From a virus (lineage: Duplodnaviria; Caudoviricetes): a stretch of 64,000 bases of DNA. The translations under genes and the position numbers were made by a program. The notes under the pieces were generated by a model that worked only from the letters and a program-made list of their open reading frames with translations, made no database searches and was not told the origin of the DNA. The DNA lies in the IMG/VR virus record IMGVR_UViG_3300032295_003840, positions 102,913 through 166,912 of that record; one strand, given 5' to 3'. This document shows, piece by piece, positions 5,594 through 47,748 of this stretch (positions are counted from its first letter, which is position 1; every line of letters begins with the position of its first letter).

Positions 5594-7027
5594 TTAGAAA
5601 TTAACTACAATATTTATTTTCTCGTTTTGATTCAAATTGCGTGTAACCGGAGCACGATAATCCAGATACAATAATTCACCGCTGTAGTGCTGCAGCTCAG
5701 GTGCAACACTGGTAATGCTGCTGACTGCTTCGCTGTAGCCTGTGCCAGCAATGACGTCACCAGCAGCGATTTGTTTTAGACGCAGAGTATTTGATGTATC
5801 AATGCGACTCAGTTCTGTTGCAGAAACAACGCTGGTATCGCTGGCCACGGGCTGAATAAACTGCAGTCTGGTGGTGCTGGCGCTTTGGAATACTGCCAGC
5901 ACTGACGCACCCGCGGTGTTGCTTAGCAAGATGTCGTTGGTGGGCGCTGTAGTAGCAGTGCTGGTCATGACCAGGGTTCGTGCAACACGCACAGTATCTG
6001 CCACGGCAACTGTGGTGGTGGTATAGGCGGCTGACAATGTCTGATACACCAGAGGATTTTTAATCAGAGCCACGGTGCGGAAATCCTGATTTACTGGAAC
6101 GTCTTCGCCCTGATAGGCCTGTACACTGCCAACAATCATGACATTGTGCGCATTGCATTCTGAAACTAGGTTGCTGGCATGGCCACCGGTGGGTGCAATA
6201 ATGGCTACGGCACTGGCCTGAGACACCACTGACGCTGCGCTGAATTGAATCTTGGCCCAGGTATAACCCGATCCTGGATCCAGTATGGTGACACCTGCAA
6301 TGGCACCAGCACTGGTCACTGCCACAGCCTGGGCACCAGACCCATCGCCATAGATGACCACGGTTGGATTGCTGCTGTAGCTACCACCCCCGGTGACCAG
6401 TATGACATCCAGACCCAGTCGATTGCTGACCGAACTAACAGTGCTGGGCACTGGTATGTAGTTGGCTGTAACAAAGTCTGCGTCGCCTGCAGTAATGGTG
6501 TACATGTATTTCCAGATATAGCCATCGGCCGTGGTCTGGGGTGCAAAGCTGGTCGACGTTGGCGCAACGGTGCTGAGAACGCCTGTGGTAAAGGTGGCAT
6601 TGGCACCATTGTACAGACACTTGTAGACCGAACTGTTGCTGGTAACATAGACAATCATGTTGCTTTCGCTTAGATTGAATTTACCCGTGGCAGTTGATTG
6701 GGCTGTGCTGATGTCATGCCGATACATGTCATAGCGCGTGCCACTGATCCAGTTGTTTCTGGCTGTGCAGAGTCGAACATCGCCGGCGGTTACCCGCACT
6801 GCTGCCATGGCATCGCGCCATAGATTGTGTTCATTGATGTAGTTGTCTGTGGGCGTCGGAGGCTGCACATCGCTGGTGACTTGTCCGCTCTGAGCTGTGA
6901 AGTTTGCGCTCAGTGTATTATTCCAGCTCTGCGGGCGTGCCAGCATCATGTAGATGCTGTCTATGGCAAATCTGGTGGCGAAACCGCTGGCAGCGGCTAC
7001 GCGAAATTTGCTGGTTACTATGGCCAT
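5594..7027 (-). CDS. gp8: Baseplate wedge subunit gp8-like
   Basis: Motifs RNNWISGTRYDMYRHD, VYKCLYNG, DGYIWKYMYTI and C-terminal GELLYLDYRAPVTR...EKINIVVNF; synteny gp6-gp7-gp8. Confidence 0.9.
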   Translation of the reverse strand: MAIVTSKFRVAAASGFATRFAIDSIYMMLARPQSWNNTLSANFTAQSGQVTSDVQPPTPTDNYINEHNLWRDAMAAVRVTAGDVRLCTARNNWISGTRYDMYRHDISTAQSTATGKFNLSESNMIVYVTSNSSVYKCLYNGANATFTTGVLSTVAPTSTSFAPQTTADGYIWKYMYTITAGDADFVTANYIPVPSTVSSVSNRLGLDVILVTGGGSYSSNPTVVIYGDGSGAQAVAVTSAGAIAGVTILDPGSGYTWAKIQFSAASVVSQASAVAIIAPTGGHASNLVSECNAHNVMIVGSVQAYQGEDVPVNQDFRTVALIKNPLVYQTLSAAYTTTTVAVADTVRVARTLVMTSTATTAPTNDILLSNTAGASVLAVFQSASTTRLQFIQPVASDTSVVSATELSRIDTSNTLRLKQIAAGDVIAGTGYSEAVSSITSVAPELQHYSGELLYLDYRAPVTRNLNQNEKINIVVNF

Positions 7028-28272: not shown

Positions 28273-28849
28273 AGATTTCTTTGAATACCGCAGCATCAAA
28301 TTTTAAAAATGGTCGGTACTTGCGAATCATTCTGCTGGTATCGGGCCATAAAAAAGTCTTGCTCATAGTCTGATCATAGTCAGCACAGAAGCCCAGCAGG
28401 GTGTCCAGTATCACCAGAGTCTCCAGACAGATGTGCTTGCCCAGATAGGCTCGCAGTATCAGTGGATGACGACCCTCGGTAAAGCTGGTCAGATCGCATT
28501 GTTCTTCTTCGGACATGGTCTGTAGCTTGTCCAGGTCCTGTGAAAATATGTATCTCAGACTCTCAATGCGACGCTGCCAGTTCTTGTATTCACGATGTGC
28601 ATTGACATCAAATACTCCGCCCCAGTGATCGCCCGCTGTAAAGTTGGCCACCATGAAGTCACAGACTTCCTTGTCCTTGTACTGGCCAACAAGTTTTCGT
28701 AGTTCAAAACTCTTGCCTGACCCTACAAAGTTTTTATAGCTGGCTCGTATGTGACCGCGCTGTTCTATGACATTATACTTCTCAGTCTGAAAGTGCGCCT
28801 TCAAAGCCAGGTACATCTTGTAGGCTTCATAGTCTGTCATGTTCATCAT
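28244..28849 (-). CDS. gp59: Helicase loader gp59
   Basis: YKMYLALKAHF, F.VANF, W.RRIESLRYIF..DL, HPLIL..YLG..I.LETLVILD, KYRPFL. Confidence 0.92.
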   Translation of the reverse strand: MMNMTDYEAYKMYLALKAHFQTEKYNVIEQRGHIRASYKNFVGSGKSFELRKLVGQYKDKEVCDFMVANFTAGDHWGGVFDVNAHREYKNWQRRIESLRYIFSQDLDKLQTMSEEEQCDLTSFTEGRHPLILRAYLGKHICLETLVILDTLLGFCADYDQTMSKTFLWPDTSRMIRKYRPFLKFDAAVFKEIYDQRIYNNS

Positions 28850-29199
28850 AGCGGTAGTCGGGCGCTGCGGCGCATTAAGTTGGCTTCTTCGGCTTCGGAA
28901 CGAATACGTTCTTTCAGCACCTGATTGATCAGAGGAGCCACGGCTTCAATGTCTATGTCCTTTTCTGTGCAGTAGTTGATGATGGTGTCCATGCAACTAA
29001 TCTGGTCCAGACGTGACTGAGCCTGCACCCAGGCACTGAATTCATTGGCACTGCTGAATTCTCGGGTAATAACATATTCATTGGTCAGCGTTTCACCCTG
29101 TGGGTCCACGGTCTTGTTGACCTTGACCTCACCATTGGGTCCGGTGAGTACCAGACCCAAGGTGCTTTGACTACGAATACGATCATTGATGCCACTCAT
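28846..29199 (-). CDS. gp33: Late transcription coactivator gp33
   Basis: MDTIINYCTEKDIDIEAVAPLINQVLKERIRSEAEEANL..SARLPL; synteny gp33-gp59-gp32. Confidence 0.88.
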   Translation of the reverse strand: MSGINDRIRSQSTLGLVLTGPNGEVKVNKTVDPQGETLTNEYVITREFSSANEFSAWVQAQSRLDQISCMDTIINYCTEKDIDIEAVAPLINQVLKERIRSEAEEANLMRRSARLPL

Positions 29200-30122
29200 T
29201 ATGCCACCCGGGCTTCAGGTACAGATCCACTAAAGCCTGCAGGCGCTGCTGGCACAGGCTGTGGTTGCATCCACTGAGCTGTGGCCAACAGGTCACAGAC
29301 ATACTCATAGGTACCAACGTGTACTGTCTTGGTCCAGGGAGCCAGGAATACCTGACCACCGATCTCACGCCAGCGCTTGCAGAAGGTAAAGTCTTCTGAG
29401 GTATAGGCCCGTGTAGCTGCATCGATGCTGACATCAAAGTAGGCATGAGACTCGCGCGGAGCATCGGCAGTGCGTGTCATGGTCTTGGGATCCATGGTCT
29501 CGGACCCACCACTGATGATCTTGATGTCGGGCAGCTTGTCTGCCATCTCAGCAAACACTCGACGATTGATCAGCATCATGCCAGTGGCAATGCTTTCTAC
29601 TTCCACAGGCTCATTGACATTGAAGGTCAGACTGTCACCCACGGGCTTGAAGGTTGATTCCGCAATCACAGCATTGATGGCATGCGGAGGAATATCAGGA
29701 CGAGTAGCAACCACGTGCTTTACCGCATCCCAGTTCATTTTCTTCTTGGCATACTGTCCACCAATCAGATCCTTGTCGGCATGAATCATGCGAATAATAT
29801 CATCGCCATCAAAGCCCAGGTCGGCGTCCAGGAACAACATGTGAGTGCACTGACTGCGAAGGAAGCCTTCTACCAGAATATTACGAGCCTTGGTAATCAG
29901 GCTCTCATTGGCTGCTACTTCGAACATGGCAGGAATGCCAGCCTGACTTAGCTTGGTCAGCAGATTGATCAGGCTAATCATGTACATGTAATTGCAGTTG
30001 CCGCCAAACATCGGAGTAGCAATAAACACCGATTTTTGTCTGGGCGGCTCGGCCTGTCGATTGATGAACAGGGGGTTGACTTTGCTTTGCGCCTTGACTG
30101 GCGGCTTGAGTTTATTACTCAT
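29199..30122 (-). CDS. Putative GT-A fold glycosyltransferase-like protein
   Basis: IATPMFGG, ESLITKARN, THMLFLDADLGF (DxD), ATGMMLI.R, SEDFTFC.RW, H.G. Confidence 0.7.
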   Translation of the reverse strand: MSNKLKPPVKAQSKVNPLFINRQAEPPRQKSVFIATPMFGGNCNYMYMISLINLLTKLSQAGIPAMFEVAANESLITKARNILVEGFLRSQCTHMLFLDADLGFDGDDIIRMIHADKDLIGGQYAKKKMNWDAVKHVVATRPDIPPHAINAVIAESTFKPVGDSLTFNVNEPVEVESIATGMMLINRRVFAEMADKLPDIKIISGGSETMDPKTMTRTADAPRESHAYFDVSIDAATRAYTSEDFTFCKRWREIGGQVFLAPWTKTVHVGTYEYVCDLLATAQWMQPQPVPAAPAGFSGSVPEARVA

Positions 30123-30185
30123 GTTGAATCATTCTCCGTTTCAGTTTAAATAATACAGTTCAAGTTCACTGCACTTGTATATATC

Positions 30186-30214
30186 AGTATAAGGCAATTT
30201 TTTCAAGGTGTCAA
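30186..30214 (-). promoter_or_regulatory. Sigma70-type promoter for the GT-gp33-gp59-gp32 unit
   Basis: TTGACA-N17-TATACT. Confidence 0.75.
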
Positions 30215-30768
30215 TAGAATATATGGTTACCAATCTTGGCCTTGGGTTGTTTATTCCAACCAGGACTGACATAGGTAGCATGAAAGTACTTGGCACCCTG
30301 TAGTTCAGGCAGTCTGACACCATCGATCAATACTTTGCGAGCCACACGCAGACTCTCTTCATAGAGATGTGGTGCACGTATATGCAGCTTGCCTTCGCAG
30401 ACCCAGCTAAACTGACATACGGTCTGACCTTCATAGTGAGTCTTCTGATGCACTACGCCGCAGATCGATGCTGGAAACTGACCACTGTGTACACGGTTCA
30501 GCGTTACCTGAGCCACGGCAATCTTGCCTTTGATGGGTTCGCTGGCACTTTCAAAATAGATGTTGCGAGCCAGGCAGGTTAGTTCGCGATTGAGCTTGGC
30601 TTGTTCAATCTTGGCTCGCTGTTGTTCCATGGCAATGCGTGCGCTCTCACGAGCCTGCAGTTCACGAGCCTGAGCCTGTGTCTGATGCAGTATACTGGCG
30701 CCAGCAACAACAGTTGATACCAAAGTGGCTGCTACAAAAATTCTACGAACAATGTGTTTGTTCAGCAT
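30211..30768 (-). CDS. Cell wall hydrolase, SleB/Hydrolase_2 family, with N-terminal signal/anchor
   Basis: CLARNIYFES, AVAQVTLNRV, FPASICGVVHQ, CQFSW, YFHATYVSPGW, IGNHIFY. Confidence 0.93.
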   Translation of the reverse strand: MLNKHIVRRIFVAATLVSTVVAGASILHQTQAQARELQARESARIAMEQQRAKIEQAKLNRELTCLARNIYFESASEPIKGKIAVAQVTLNRVHSGQFPASICGVVHQKTHYEGQTVCQFSWVCEGKLHIRAPHLYEESLRVARKVLIDGVRLPELQGAKYFHATYVSPGWNKQPKAKIGNHIFY

Positions 30769-30786
30769 TAATGTTCTCCTTGTTAA

Positions 30787-30810
30787 GATGGTGCGCCGAA
30801 GCGCACCGTC
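30787..30810 (-). promoter_or_regulatory. cUUCGg hairpin immediately 5' of the hydrolase RBS
   Basis: GACGGTGCGC-TTCG-GCGCACCATC followed by TTAACAAGGAG; no U-tract. Confidence 0.6.
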
Positions 30811-30815
30811 CCCCG

Positions 30816-31085
30816 TCAGGCAGATTTTTTGCTTACTTTATCTGTGGGTGTATTGGAAACGAAACCATTCAAGGACTGTGCCTTGTTGATGATGTCGGTT
30901 TCTGAGGGGTAAGATGGAAATGCAGGATGCTCTGGAATGGATTGCCCATTGAGTTTGGCTACATCGACCTTGACGTGCCATTCCTGCTGTAGACGATCTT
31001 TTGCGGAATAATATTCTTCCATCAAAAGCTCTTTCGCCATTTTTAGAAGTTCAAGGCGAATCTCGAACGGTGTCAGATTAGACAT
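30816..31085 (-). CDS. Small phage hypothetical protein
   Basis: MSNLTPFEIRLELLKMAKELL...P.YP.E.DII.KA..LNGFVS, a pattern I recognise from T4-like phages. Confidence 0.85.
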   Translation of the reverse strand: MSNLTPFEIRLELLKMAKELLMEEYYSAKDRLQQEWHVKVDVAKLNGQSIPEHPAFPSYPSETDIINKAQSLNGFVSNTPTDKVSKKSA

Positions 31086-31145: not shown

Positions 31146-31175
31146 TATTATTATATATCTATACTAAACTGTCAA

Positions 31176-31250
31176 TTAGCGATTTGCGATATACATGGTG
31201 ATTTCAAAACCAAAACGCATATCCTGAGCTGAGGGTGTGGTCCACTTCAT
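31176..31250 (-). CDS. pqqA: Pyrroloquinoline quinone precursor peptide PqqA (24 aa)
   Basis: Hand translation MKWTTPSAQDMRFGFEITMYIANR*: W-x-x-P leader, RFGFE and the E-x-x-x-Y core; AGGAGA RBS upstream. Below the ORF-track size cut-off. Confidence 0.95.
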   Translation of the reverse strand: MKWTTPSAQDMRFGFEITMYIANR

Positions 31251-31334
31251 GATGTTTCTCCTAGGTTATGCAGGCAAGTGCCTACATTATATCTATGCCG
31301 CAGGCCGCTACAGAAAAACATTAAAATTGCCTAA

Positions 31335-32054
31335 TTACTTCCAATACCGATCATGATCCAGACTGTTCCAGTGCTTGGCATTGTTGCGATTTAAAAAGTT
31401 TTTAATTAAATACCAGGCCATGCCAAAGTATCCCATCTGTTGAAATCTACGACTATCCTGACCAAAATAGTGCGGCATCAGTCTGAATTTTTTCACATCA
31501 TACATCTTTGAAAGAAAAAAGTCTTCGCTGGTTGTATATTTGTTTGAAAACCCACCCAACTCCTGAAATTTATCGCGCCGTGTCAGCATGAATGCACCCA
31601 CGGCAAAGGGTGTCCAGTGTTTCATTACACTGTTGACTGCATTGAATATCATGAATGCCAGCTGTGCTTTCACGCTACCGTCATAGCATTTTATATACAG
31701 TCCAATTAAATCCAAATTGTGCTGTTCAATTTCACGTACACAATCGGCAATGGTTGTCGTTGAAAAGAATCTTACATCGCTGTCAATGAATAAAATATAG
31801 GGCGTGGTTGCAAGTCTGGCGCCGTTGTTCTTGGCCACAGAAACTGCACCACCTTGGATGACTTCTATGTTTAAATTTTTACCGTGCTGACGTATGACAT
31901 CGCGCGTACCATCCGTGGATGCATCGGCAACAATGATTTTAGTGTTGCCCAGGCCCTGCAGTTTTAAATGATCCAAAAGATGGCCTATGTAGTTTTCTTC
32001 GTTTTTACACGGAACTACAATGGTTATTTTATCTTCTAATTTGATTTCTGGCAT
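31335..32054 (-). CDS. Glycosyltransferase family 2
   Basis: TIVVPCKNEE, IIVADASTDGT, AKNNGA, ILFIDSD, GGF..SEDF. Confidence 0.92.
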   Translation of the reverse strand: MPEIKLEDKITIVVPCKNEENYIGHLLDHLKLQGLGNTKIIVADASTDGTRDVIRQHGKNLNIEVIQGGAVSVAKNNGARLATTPYILFIDSDVRFFSTTTIADCVREIEQHNLDLIGLYIKCYDGSVKAQLAFMIFNAVNSVMKHWTPFAVGAFMLTRRDKFQELGGFSNKYTTSEDFFLSKMYDVKKFRLMPHYFGQDSRRFQQMGYFGMAWYLIKNFLNRNNAKHWNSLDHDRYWK

Positions 32055-32209
32055 CGGCCTTCTACCTTAAAGGCATCAAATTTCAAGGAATATGTCATGG
32101 TCTGCAGAACTTGTTCACACTGTTGTTGTGTCTGAAACTGCAGCGTGATCCGACCTGGTATGTCCCTTGGATCGTTTATGTGGACGGCCATCAATATCAT
32201 CAGCCACAT
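32036..32209 (-). CDS. Small hypothetical protein (57 aa, hydrophobic N-terminus, two Cys)
   Basis: Hand translation MWLMILMAVHINDPRDIPGRITLQFQTQQQCEQVLQTMTYSLKFDAFKVEGRCQKSN*; overlaps the non-conserved tail of the upstream gene; AGGAG upstream. Confidence 0.65.
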   Translation of the reverse strand: MWLMILMAVHINDPRDIPGRITLQFQTQQQCEQVLQTMTYSLKFDAFKVEGRCQKSN

Positions 32210-32960
32210 CGTCTTTCTCCTGTGTCCAAGTTATGATTTCCCAATGTCCATCATGATGTTCCACCAGTGCAGAACAACTTTCAACCCAGTCACCGTCATT
32301 CATGTATACAACACCATCTATTTCTTTGATCTCTGCATGATGTATGTGACCACAGATCACTCCATGGAACCCACGTTTCTTGCAGTAGCCTGCTAGGTTT
32401 TGTTCAAATTGAAAAATAAAGTCTATGGCCTTTTTTACGCGGTGCTTAAGAAAACCGCTAAGGCTAAAATAACCAATACCAAATCTATGTAGGATCCAAT
32501 TAAATTTATTATTAACTGATAAGATGCAATCATATGCTCGATCTCCTAAAAAACTTAGCCAGGGTGCTAGTCTTGTGATACCATCAAATAAATCTCCGTG
32601 TATTACCAAATAACGTCTACCGTCTGTGCCAACATGCTCGCATTGATTGGTCATTTCCACCATGCCAAAATTTAAATTATATTGCAAGAACGGTCTAAAA
32701 AATTCATCGTGATTGCCCAACACGTAGATTACACGAGTGTCGCGTTTGGCATGGCCCAGTATGCGTCGAACAACATTGGTATGACTCTGCTTCCAGCGCC
32801 ATTTGTTTTGTTTTATCTTCCAGCCGTCGATGATGTCGCCTACAAGATACAGAGTCTTGCAGGTATTGTGCTTGAGAAAATTATTTAAAGCTTCGGCTTT
32901 GCAGTCCTTGGTGCCGAGATGAACGTCGGAAATAAAGATGCTGCGATAGGTTTTTTGCAT
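32115..32960 (-). CDS. plcP: PlcP-type (LpxH2-like) metallophosphoesterase / phospholipase C
   Basis: ISDVHLG, LVGDIIDGW, GNHDE, IHGDLFD, LGDRAYD, GVICGHIHH, GDWVESCSALVE..G.WEIITW; collinear with PlcP as I recall it; has GNHD rather than the GNRD of enteric LpxH. Confidence 0.8.
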   Translation of the reverse strand: MQKTYRSIFISDVHLGTKDCKAEALNNFLKHNTCKTLYLVGDIIDGWKIKQNKWRWKQSHTNVVRRILGHAKRDTRVIYVLGNHDEFFRPFLQYNLNFGMVEMTNQCEHVGTDGRRYLVIHGDLFDGITRLAPWLSFLGDRAYDCILSVNNKFNWILHRFGIGYFSLSGFLKHRVKKAIDFIFQFEQNLAGYCKKRGFHGVICGHIHHAEIKEIDGVVYMNDGDWVESCSALVEHHDGHWEIITWTQEKDDVADDIDGRPHKRSKGHTRSDHAAVSDTTTV

Positions 32961-32995
32961 GTTATTGTTATAGTAATCAGTAATATTTATTGATC

Positions 32996-33023
32996 GCAGT
33001 ATTACCGTTCAATTACCATTACA
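32996..33023 (-). promoter_or_regulatory. 11-bp-period direct repeat (Pho-box/OmpR-family-like) upstream of plcP
   Basis: TGTAAT-GGTAATTGAAC-GGTAATACTGC; GGTAAT at 33017-33012 and 33006-33001, then ATAAATA 10 nt after the second hexamer. Confidence 0.4.
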
Positions 33024-33024
33024 A

Positions 33025-33333
33025 ATAAAAATGCCGGGTTATTCTGTTACGAGGAAACCCGACGAAACCCTAAGCAGCGTTTAGGCTGCTAATGCATAAC
33101 TTTCGTCATTTGCATTTACTTGTTTTGCTTGATTTACGGTCATCGCCTACCGTGTTGTCCATATCCTTACTCATTGCCCTGTCGAAACCATGTCTGGCCC
33201 ATCAGAAGCATATTCTGTCGTCGTTTTTGCTACGCAGGTAACGACCAAGACCTCAAAGAATATGCTTTTGGTGGACCAGGCGGGAGTCGAACCCGCGTCC
33301 AGAACACCTTTCATTCTACTTCATACAACAATA
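33025..33333 (-). ncRNA. ssrA: Circularly permuted (two-piece) tmRNA
   Basis: The acceptor piece with T-arm GCGGG-TTCGACT-CCCGC and CTGGTCC-A-CCA (ends 33269) comes first. A 68 nt intervening segment follows. The coding piece starts GGGCCAG (33200); the 7 bp acceptor stem has G3:U70. Tag ORF 33113-33081 = ANDESYALAA*. Outer ends approximate. Confidence 0.93.
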
Positions 33334-33340
33334 TCTTTAT

Positions 33341-33775
33341 TTATGGATTTTCTGCGTCAAAGGCATCCAGTGCTTTCTTGAAGCGACCAGCATGACTGCG
33401 TTCTGCCTTGGCCAGGGTCTCAAACCAGTCGGCAATCTCGTCAAATCCTTCGTCACGCGCTGTCTTGGCCATGCCTGGATACATGTCGGTGTACTCATGA
33501 GTCTCACCTTCGATGGCGCTGTGCAGTGCTTCCTTCACAGTCTTGGCTGCCAGACCAGTGCCTGGATCGCCATGACCGCCTTCGATCAGATACTCCATGT
33601 GTCCATGTGCATGACCAGTTTCGCCTTCGGCTGTGCTGCGAAACAGTGCTGCCACATCAGGAGCGCCCATGACGTCGCAGGTGTTGGCAAAATACAGATA
33701 GCGACGATTGGCCATGCTCTCGCCTGCAAAGGCTTCTTTCAGACATTCCGCGGTGCGGGTACCTTTTAAATTCAT
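33341..33775 (-). CDS. Rubrerythrin (short form, no rubredoxin domain)
   Basis: [48 protein letters not shown]. Confidence 0.95.
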
Positions 33776-41142: not shown

Positions 41143-41898
41143 TCAGGCTACGTGCTTGGCTTCGTACTCCATGCGTGCAAGTATATATTCCCTGACAATG
41201 TCACTGCGTACAATGTCGTCAACATCAAACTCCACGCTGCGGAAGCTGGGCATCATGTCGGCTATGGCCATGAACTTTTTAAGTCCACTCATGTCGCCTT
41301 TCTTGTACAGATCGGTCTGACGGAAGTCTCCACAGAAGATGATCTTTGAGCGATCACCAACACGAGTCATGATACTGTTCAATTCCATGTCGGTCATGTT
41401 CTGACATTCATCGACAATGACAATGCTGTCATCCAGGGTAATACCGCGTACAAAGCTAGTGATCATAAAGTTAATGACCTTCTGTTCCTGTAGTCTTTGA
41501 AACGCATCATGGCGATTATAGAATAGTCTGTGACAGATGTCAATATAGGGGGCGGTATATACTTCGGTTTTCTCCTTTTCATCGCCAGGCAGGTGACCGA
41601 TGTCGCGGCTGGGCACAGCACTGCGAACCAGAACTACCTGCTGTAGTCTGTTGCTACGATCCATTACTTCTTCCAGAGCTTTGTACAAAGCTATGAAAGT
41701 CTTACCTGTTCCTGCTACGCCATGTAGCAGCATACACTGGGCTCCTTGTTGATACAGTTCAAAAAATTTATTTTGATTTTCAGTCAGAGGATCAAAAGTT
41801 GCCAAATCATCGATGTTAAGTTTTAACTTCTGATGATTGCTTTTGAGCGTGACTGCGGGGGCTAGCTGAAGAGCTTGTTGTGTATTCTTTTTTGCCAT
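41143..41898 (-). CDS. phoH: PhoH-family ATPase
   Basis: [52 protein letters not shown]; likely start MAKK at 41898. Confidence 0.95.
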
Positions 41899-41939
41899 GA
41901 TTGCCCTTTGTTTCTTCTTCTTGGTTGGAGTTTCAGTCA

Positions 41940-41986
41940 AAGAAAAACCCCCAAGCAGTGCCGCGCGGCGGCTAGCTGGTGGGGGC
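41940..41986 (-). terminator. Extended GC-rich hairpin plus U-tract in the phoH leader
   Basis: CCCCCACCAGCTAGCCGCCGCGCGGCACTGCTTGGGGG-TTTTTCTTT. Confidence 0.55.
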
Positions 41987-42016
41987 CGTGGTGTTCTTTG
42001 TCTGGCTGTCAATTCA

Positions 42017-47719: not shown

Positions 47720-47748
47720 ATTATAGCAAAAAAGCACCGTTTTGTCAA
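47720..47748 (-). promoter_or_regulatory. Consensus sigma70 (early) promoter
   Basis: TTGACA-N17-TATAAT with TGc extension. Confidence 0.88.

Follow-up and report, generated by a model that had tools for sequence, protein, structure and literature searches.

The pqqA gene and its place in the phage record

The window, that is the whole stretch of 64,000 nucleotides which we analysed, carries on its minus strand a short reading frame which starts with ATG, ends with TAA and translates into MKWTTPSAQDMRFGFEITMYIANR (Table 1). The peptide scores 39.5 bits with the Pfam model PqqA (PF08042, cut-off 21.1, E 5e-10), all 19 positions of which are matched, and 38.4 bits with the NCBIfam equivalog TIGR02107 (cut-off 20). 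It comprises 24 amino acids (the family has about 20–40) and contains the E-x-x-x-Y pair intact as Glu16 and Tyr20. This Glu and this Tyr of PqqA are cross-linked and become PQQ. The W-x-x-P leader ahead of the core, which is the part recognised by PqqD, is also present (W3 and P6). A Shine–Dalgarno sequence precedes the start codon, and relatives of the gene have an AGGAG-like site at the same place. By both curated family models the reading frame is a genuine PqqA. The first-pass annotation had claimed a pqqA gene with a good ribosome binding site and an ExxxY motif at this locus, and this is borne out in all three respects, the intact reading frame reaching about 39 bits with two curated models. 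A six-frame search gave this single PqqA match (E 8e-10) in the whole 166.9-kb record.

Table 1. Positions of pqqA and of the features around it, numbered as in the window
Feature	Position	Strand	Remarks
307-aa glycosyltransferase-like ORF	29199..30122	(-)	weak Anp1 match
89-aa ORF	30816..31085	(-)	directly downstream of pqqA; adjoins pqqA also in viral contigs L188 and L194 (73–76% nucleotide identity)
Sigma-70-type promoter TTGACA-17-AATAAT	31147..31175	(-)	overlaps the pqqA stop codon, faces the 89-aa ORF; at the position of the relatives' terminator
pqqA coding sequence	31176..31250	(-)	24 codons and TAA; E16/Y20 pair; leader W3 and P6; basis: sequence, PF08042, TIGR02107
Shine–Dalgarno AGGAGA	31257..31262	(-)	6 nt 5′ of the pqqA ATG
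Leader hairpin	31270..31285	(-)	6-bp stem (31285–31280 with 31275–31270), 4-nt loop; predicted with ViennaRNA
-10-like box TATAATG	31285..31291	(-)	lacks a TTGACA at -35; an early-class promoter that is weak or partial at best
Segment of lower GC	31200..33400		glycosyltransferase, phosphoesterase, tmRNA
Late-type box ATAAATA	32984..32990	(-)	precedes the phosphoesterase gene
Circularly permuted tmRNA	33013..33383	(-)	Rfam beta_tmRNA, 142.5 bits; ARAGORN tag ANDESYALAA
PhoH-like gene	41143..42012	(-)	10 kb from the phosphoesterase/pqqA segment; adds to a phosphorus-stress theme in this genome arm

The window corresponds to bases 102913–166912 of a linear IMG/VR record of 166,912 bp with a GC content of 48% and a CheckV completeness of 92%. 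The pqqA gene is located at about 134.1 kb of the record, more than 30 kb from both contig ends. On one flank there are gp32, gp59 and a gp33-like late coactivator, followed by the glycosyltransferase-like gene, a cell-wall hydrolase and the 89-aa ORF, for which neither a Pfam nor a PHROG family was found. The other flank consists of a family-2 glycosyltransferase, a metallophosphoesterase, the permuted tmRNA, a rubrerythrin and a 2OG-Fe(II) oxygenase, and beyond the oxygenase an exonuclease, an endolysin, PhoH, an endonuclease and a DNA ligase are encoded. Directly upstream of pqqA are thus the glycosyltransferase and the metallophosphoesterase. Across the segment with these two genes and the tmRNA the GC content is only 0.39–0.42, against 0.48 in the genome, which suggests that the segment was acquired from a source of lower GC.

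The rest of the PQQ pathway is missing. We found no match to pqqB, pqqD or pqqE anywhere in the 166.9-kb record. There is also no match to pqqC in the record, but this negative is weak as the PqqC model was without a match in any control genome. Bacterial PqqB-E queries in tblastn likewise gave nothing in the window; the same queries match 39 of the 120 cellular loci listed. The first-pass annotation had stated that the window is free of pqqB-E and had suggested a check of the remaining genome for pqqBCDE; its statement holds and extends to the whole record, with the reservation on PqqC. Adjacency to pqqBCDE, which is a criterion for PqqA, is therefore not seen here, but it is not a strict one, since 60 of the 99 assessable cellular copies are also orphans. 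The search of the whole record for a PQQ-dependent alcohol dehydrogenase or a PQQ beta-propeller and for a tyrosine integrase was negative as well. Thus, pqqA stands truly alone in a T4-like phage of the lytic type, and it lies far from the contig ends.

Could the host-like sequence be an attP-like homology for integration or recombination, or simply the result of a host–phage chimeric assembly? In phage Venkman the frame occupies the antisense strand of a gap between genes, and attachment sites can be arranged like this. However, the record belongs to a T4-like phage and lacks a tyrosine integrase, and the nearest host DNA among the matches listed is 80% identical without an exact core. A chimeric assembly, which had been raised in the first-pass annotation as a caveat, is contradicted by the phage genes on both sides of the locus, by its position over 30 kb away from both contig ends and by independent assemblies from other samples in which the gene recurs beside the same neighbours. 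We reject both explanations on these grounds and consider them extremely improbable.

Expression signals of the gene

The TATAAT noticed earlier upstream of pqqA is indeed present (31291–31286), but its role as a promoter is doubtful. The early promoters of the phage are nearly identical modules of the form gCTTGACA-N17-(tgc)TATAATGGt, and unlike these the box has no -35 element; a scan for two-hexamer promoters did not report it. Modules of the early type are found at the window positions 47725, 53816, 45496 and 49200 (-) and at the genome positions 28632–30851. Several of them are followed by a near-identical leader with the end GAGAAAGGAAA in front of the ATG; it looks as though a single promoter–leader cassette had been copied ahead of many early genes.

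The late motif of the phage is ATAAATA(A) (ATAAATAA), and 13 of its 16 copies are just 5′ of genes. One such late-type box stands before the phosphoesterase gene, and we found no terminator-like hairpin between this box and pqqA. Therefore pqqA may be the last cistron of a unit driven by the late-type box.

The predicted leader hairpin abuts the -10-like box. As a consequence a transcript begun at this box would be without the 5′ arm of the hairpin, and a combination of an own promoter with a 5′ hairpin is incompatible in the window. The relatives have a hairpin at the same place of the leader, with a different sequence. The unit is cleaner in L131/L170, L155, L178 and L220, where 6 nt separate the -10 box from a hairpin beginning with ACATAC, and where AGGAG, the reading frame and a canonical intrinsic terminator follow. 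Behind this terminator, L170 and L131 have a tRNA-like sequence on the other strand, and in Melnitz pqqA is likewise next to tRNA genes. In the window a strong sigma-70-type promoter of the 89-aa ORF stands at the position of the terminator (Table 1).

Among the 122 viral copies listed the leaders are more structured than shuffled sequences (mean z -1.3) and a terminator-like hairpin is found in 55. Cellular copies of pqqA, orphan and operonic ones, show the same structured leaders and terminators. By these features the phages carry the mini-cassette design of the host, that is a structured leader, a Shine–Dalgarno sequence, the reading frame and often a terminator.

Occurrence, relatives and selection in other phages

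A PqqA search across phage genomes, which had been proposed in the first place, yields homologues in multiple cultured phages and, within IMG/VR, in at least 120 contigs. In GenBank phages tblastn returned complete pqqA reading frames from four Melnitz myophages, from Venkman, P19250A and MEP301, from the Zobellviridae MEP401/402 and from the metagenomic ctXG6705. Each of these homologues has an ATG, a Shine–Dalgarno-like site, a stop codon and an intact E-x-x-x-Y, and every cultured Methylophilales phage group which was returned carries a complete stand-alone pqqA. None of the homologues is annotated as such. Venkman, P19250A, MEP301 and MEP402 have no annotation at the position of the gene. 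In Melnitz (MZ577097) a hypothetical CDS at 5967–6170 is given in GenBank on the strand opposite to the real pqqA frame, and the gene is situated between tRNA-Arg and tRNA-Leu. That all the cultured Methylophilales groups returned have the gene without an annotation is unrecognised in the literature that we searched. Homologues of the 307-aa glycosyltransferase-like ORF adjoin pqqA in at least 10 Venkman-like small-phage contigs and in ctXG6705; this ORF is a second gene common to unrelated pqqA-bearing phages. We dismissed the two matches labelled "Acinetobacter phage MD-2021a", since these contigs are bacterial and contain pqqABCDE and ppk. One of them, CAKLQF020000010.1, is a bacterial contig of 144 kb, and such labels are a trap for surveys of auxiliary metabolic genes (AMGs).

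IMG/VR was searched with a degenerate DNA pattern for the core M-R-F-G-F-E-[IV]-T-M-Y, which gave at least 120 viral loci; the same pattern gave at least 120 cellular loci in species-representative genomes. No PqqB-E was found by tblastn near pqqA in the 120 viral loci listed, in six isolate loci or in the window. Single-linkage clustering of the viral contexts was dropped, since it linked phages that are unrelated into a single group of 74. With a strict rule for shared neighbours we obtain, as a rough count, at least 14 groups with more than one member and 28 singletons. Thus, pqqA is carried in many different viral contexts.

The analysis of selection is based on the 127 viral copies among the matches listed, which had been identified by means of a search pattern with a fixed PqqA core. 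They consist of 115 different DNA sequences, which encode 52 peptides, the commonest peptide being encoded by 18 different DNAs. The leader W and P, both outside the search pattern, are invariant in the 115 distinct viral DNAs listed, though four codons are used for P. For the free codons, pN/pS is 0.21 with 198 synonymous and 151 non-synonymous changes, counted along a minimum spanning tree and not on a phylogeny. The corresponding value for the free codons of the cellular copies listed is 0.155. A pN/pS of 0.11 over all codons was set aside, since the search pattern had fixed ten of them. From these codon counts we conclude that purifying selection acts on the viral copies.

The nearest relatives of the window gene among the matches listed are viral. 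The copies of L170, a contig of 166 kb, and of L131 agree with it in 23 of 24 residues and in 61 of 69 nucleotides, and the PqqA of L178 (148 kb) is identical in 23 of 24 residues. Overall, relatives with a nucleotide identity of 79–88% retain 20–23 of the 24 residues. A Gp23-type capsid is encoded by L170, by L178 and by the 356-kb L153. The nearest cellular DNA among the matches listed is identical in 55 of 69 positions only. Directly ahead of the core, A-Q-[D/E] is found in 9 of the 127 viral and in none of the 127 cellular copies listed. These nine include the window, the marine Melnitz, L170 and L153, and several are in myophages. The neighbourhood is reshuffled but partly common: the 89-aa ORF, pqqA and the tmRNA occur together in L188 and L194, pqqA and the tmRNA in L155, pqqA and the rubrerythrin in L178, and the phosphoesterase, the tmRNA, the rubrerythrin and pqqA in L220. 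The close viral relatives, the kept neighbourhood, the virus-only A-Q-[D/E] and the distance to cellular DNA indicate that a myophage lineage has long carried the gene and did not capture it recently.

These data also bear on the idea that pqqA is a mere passenger, a tiny host cassette which was caught by chance, has not yet been lost and is without benefit to the phage. A gene of 75 nt has a minimal carrying cost, and the DNA similarity of L170 and L131 to the window extends only from the ribosome binding site to the stop codon, as for a mobile mini-cassette. A passenger, however, should not be under purifying selection, nor be retained across relatives which have diverged to 79–88% nucleotide identity. 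The virus-only signature common to the window and Melnitz, the presence of the gene throughout the cultured Methylophilales phage groups returned and the nearest cellular DNA listed, which is too distant for a recent capture, speak against it as well. We regard a passenger as quite improbable.

Alternatively, the peptide could act as a decoy or regulator which floods PqqD/PqqE or the processing peptidase, or has some other activity, and so perturbs the metabolism of the host. That some leader positions, namely A-Q-[D/E], are virus-specific would agree with such a role. But all 127 viral copies listed preserve the complete core with its reactive Glu and Tyr, though the search pattern required this, and the window peptide matches the Pfam model in full. 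Moreover, among the matches listed, the viral and the host copies share their two most frequent peptides, and such identity is needed for a substrate and not for a decoy. A decoy is in our view very improbable.

Proposed role, possible hosts and comparison with known systems

PqqA is used one-for-one in PQQ synthesis, whereas PqqB-E act catalytically (Zhu and Klinman 2020, as cited in PMC9851590). For this reason the simplest assumption is that the phage would replenish the only input of the pathway which becomes exhausted once host transcription falls. We think it likely that the gene is a functional phage-resident pqqA, an auxiliary gene which would supply the consumed substrate to the host PqqBCDE. 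This is also the interpretation of the first-pass annotation, which is supported as far as sequence analysis can go.

We suggest that this supply would proceed in the following steps. The 24-residue PqqA peptide would be made by the phage during infection. The host PqqD/PqqE could then cross-link Glu16 to Tyr20, and a host peptidase, PqqB and PqqC would complete the conversion to PQQ, with one peptide used per PQQ. The catalytic enzymes would outlast the shut-off of host transcription, whereas the short peptide and its mRNA would need renewal. In this way a gene of only 75 nt could keep up or raise the supply of cofactor to the periplasmic PQQ-dependent dehydrogenases and thereby provide respiratory energy for phage production. 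The expression during infection, the processing by the host enzymes and the benefit to the phage are what we infer from the sequence. PQQ is a stable cofactor, and we assume here that there is a need for new synthesis within one infection.

The idea of supplying a substrate rather than an enzyme fits the published biology of pqqA in methylotrophs. According to PMC9851590 and the work cited there, methylotrophs have pqqA in several scattered copies, which differ widely in expression, and a cell-free extract turns added PqqA into PQQ at 70–80%. The same paper states that overexpression of pqq genes often lifts PQQ only modestly.

The position of the gene allows a second use of the cofactor to be considered. 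In a phosphorus-stress island the extra PQQ would serve glucose dehydrogenase, with release of gluconate and solubilisation of mineral phosphate, and not the oxidation of alcohol or methanol. Consistent with this, pqqA follows directly on the glycosyltransferase and the metallophosphoesterase, PhoH is 10 kb away, L220 and L227 keep a phosphoesterase near pqqA, and viral pqqA is placed among phosphate-solubilising AMGs in PMC13188868. The linkage is loose, however. In L188, L194, L155, L170 and L131 no phosphoesterase adjoins pqqA, and the neighbours in Melnitz and in the small phages are unrelated. In our judgement planktonic cells also have no obvious gain from the solubilisation of mineral phosphate. 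A role confined to phosphorus thus appears unlikely, and we prefer the supply of substrate for PQQ-dependent respiration.

Which host would use the peptide? Among the matches listed, the cellular peptides closest to the window peptide (21 of 24 residues) come from operons of Rhodoferax, Limnobacter, Tepidimonas and Albidiferax. Of 301 sampled genomes of the Rhodoferax family, 67 have a PqqA match, nearly always as a single copy and with at most 88% identity over the 24 residues. In a sample of Methylophilaceae all 201 of 201 genomes have a match, with 1–12 copies each, many of them orphans; their identity to the window peptide is 74% at best (17 of 23) and typically 65%. We also tried the tmRNA as a host marker. 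BLAST against five candidate genomes, from Methylopumilus, Methylotenera, Rhodoferax, Limnobacter and Albidiferax, gave no match beyond a conserved stretch of about 30 nt, and in none of them does a beta-type permuted tmRNA exceed the Rfam cut-off. For these two reasons the assignment by tmRNA was dropped. We conclude that the host is probably a PQQ-making betaproteobacterium and go to no finer level, although the peptide makes a host outside the Methylophilaceae plausible.

A functional PqqA would be an auxiliary gene which supplies a consumed substrate and not an enzyme, at a cost of 75 nt. The window adds to the known genes a Rhodoferax/Limnobacter-like variant and the virus-only signature, and this type of gene may extend beyond the phages of obligate methylotrophs. 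It is conceivable, though rather doubtful, that a general phage strategy is seen here, with an old T4-like lineage marked by A-Q-[D/E] (Melnitz and the window phage), hosts of the Rhodoferax/Limnobacter type and possibly an island for phosphorus or energy stress. Standard gene callers miss pqqA, and surveys of viral metabolic genes will therefore under-count it. Cultured pairs of phage and host, such as OM43 with Melnitz or Venkman, make the idea directly testable.

Neither viral pqqA nor the idea of substrate supply is new. A viral PqqA has been named in the T4-like phage population VP_266 of Lake Baikal, with the same role proposed (Coutinho et al. 2020, Microbiome 8:163, PMC7678222), and a virus-encoded pqqA is given in a paper of 2026 (PMC13188868). 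As in the window, the Baikal gene is a PqqA gene of an uncultured freshwater T4-like phage and was read as auxiliary for PQQ-dependent metabolism. The Baikal phages, however, have 35% GC, were assigned to Methylophilaceae hosts and are reported with a methanol dehydrogenase (PMC7678222), whereas our record has 48% GC, no PQQ-dependent dehydrogenase and a peptide nearer to the Rhodoferax/Limnobacter types. P19250A is stated to have none of these AMGs (PMC7678222); contrary to this statement tblastn finds a complete pqqA there. In the Melnitz paper PQQ is mentioned only as a medium supplement. The medium published for OM43 has PQQ at 1 nM (PMC9004378).

The pqqA genes of the cultured Methylophilales phages resemble the window gene in being stand-alone, complete reading frames with a ribosome binding site and the E-x-x-x-Y pair and without any other pqq gene. 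The Melnitz peptide in addition shares the length of 24 residues, the start MKW and the A-Q-[D/E]. The identity to the window peptide is 18 of 24 for Melnitz and 64–68% for the small phages. They differ from the window copy in the C-terminus, which is VMNK, the Methylophilaceae type, instead of IANR, and in the neighbouring genes. Cellular PqqA belongs to the same family by PF08042/TIGR02107 and has the same design as a mini-cassette; orphan copies are common among the cellular genes, and the window copy is virus-encoded.

The classic auxiliary gene for a component with fast turnover is psbA (D1) of cyanophages. There a structural subunit is encoded, and expression and benefit have been measured, whereas the pqqA of the window would provide a consumed substrate and is known from its sequence. 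What both would have in common is that the phage replaces the one part which is consumed or has the fastest turnover and the host supplies the rest.
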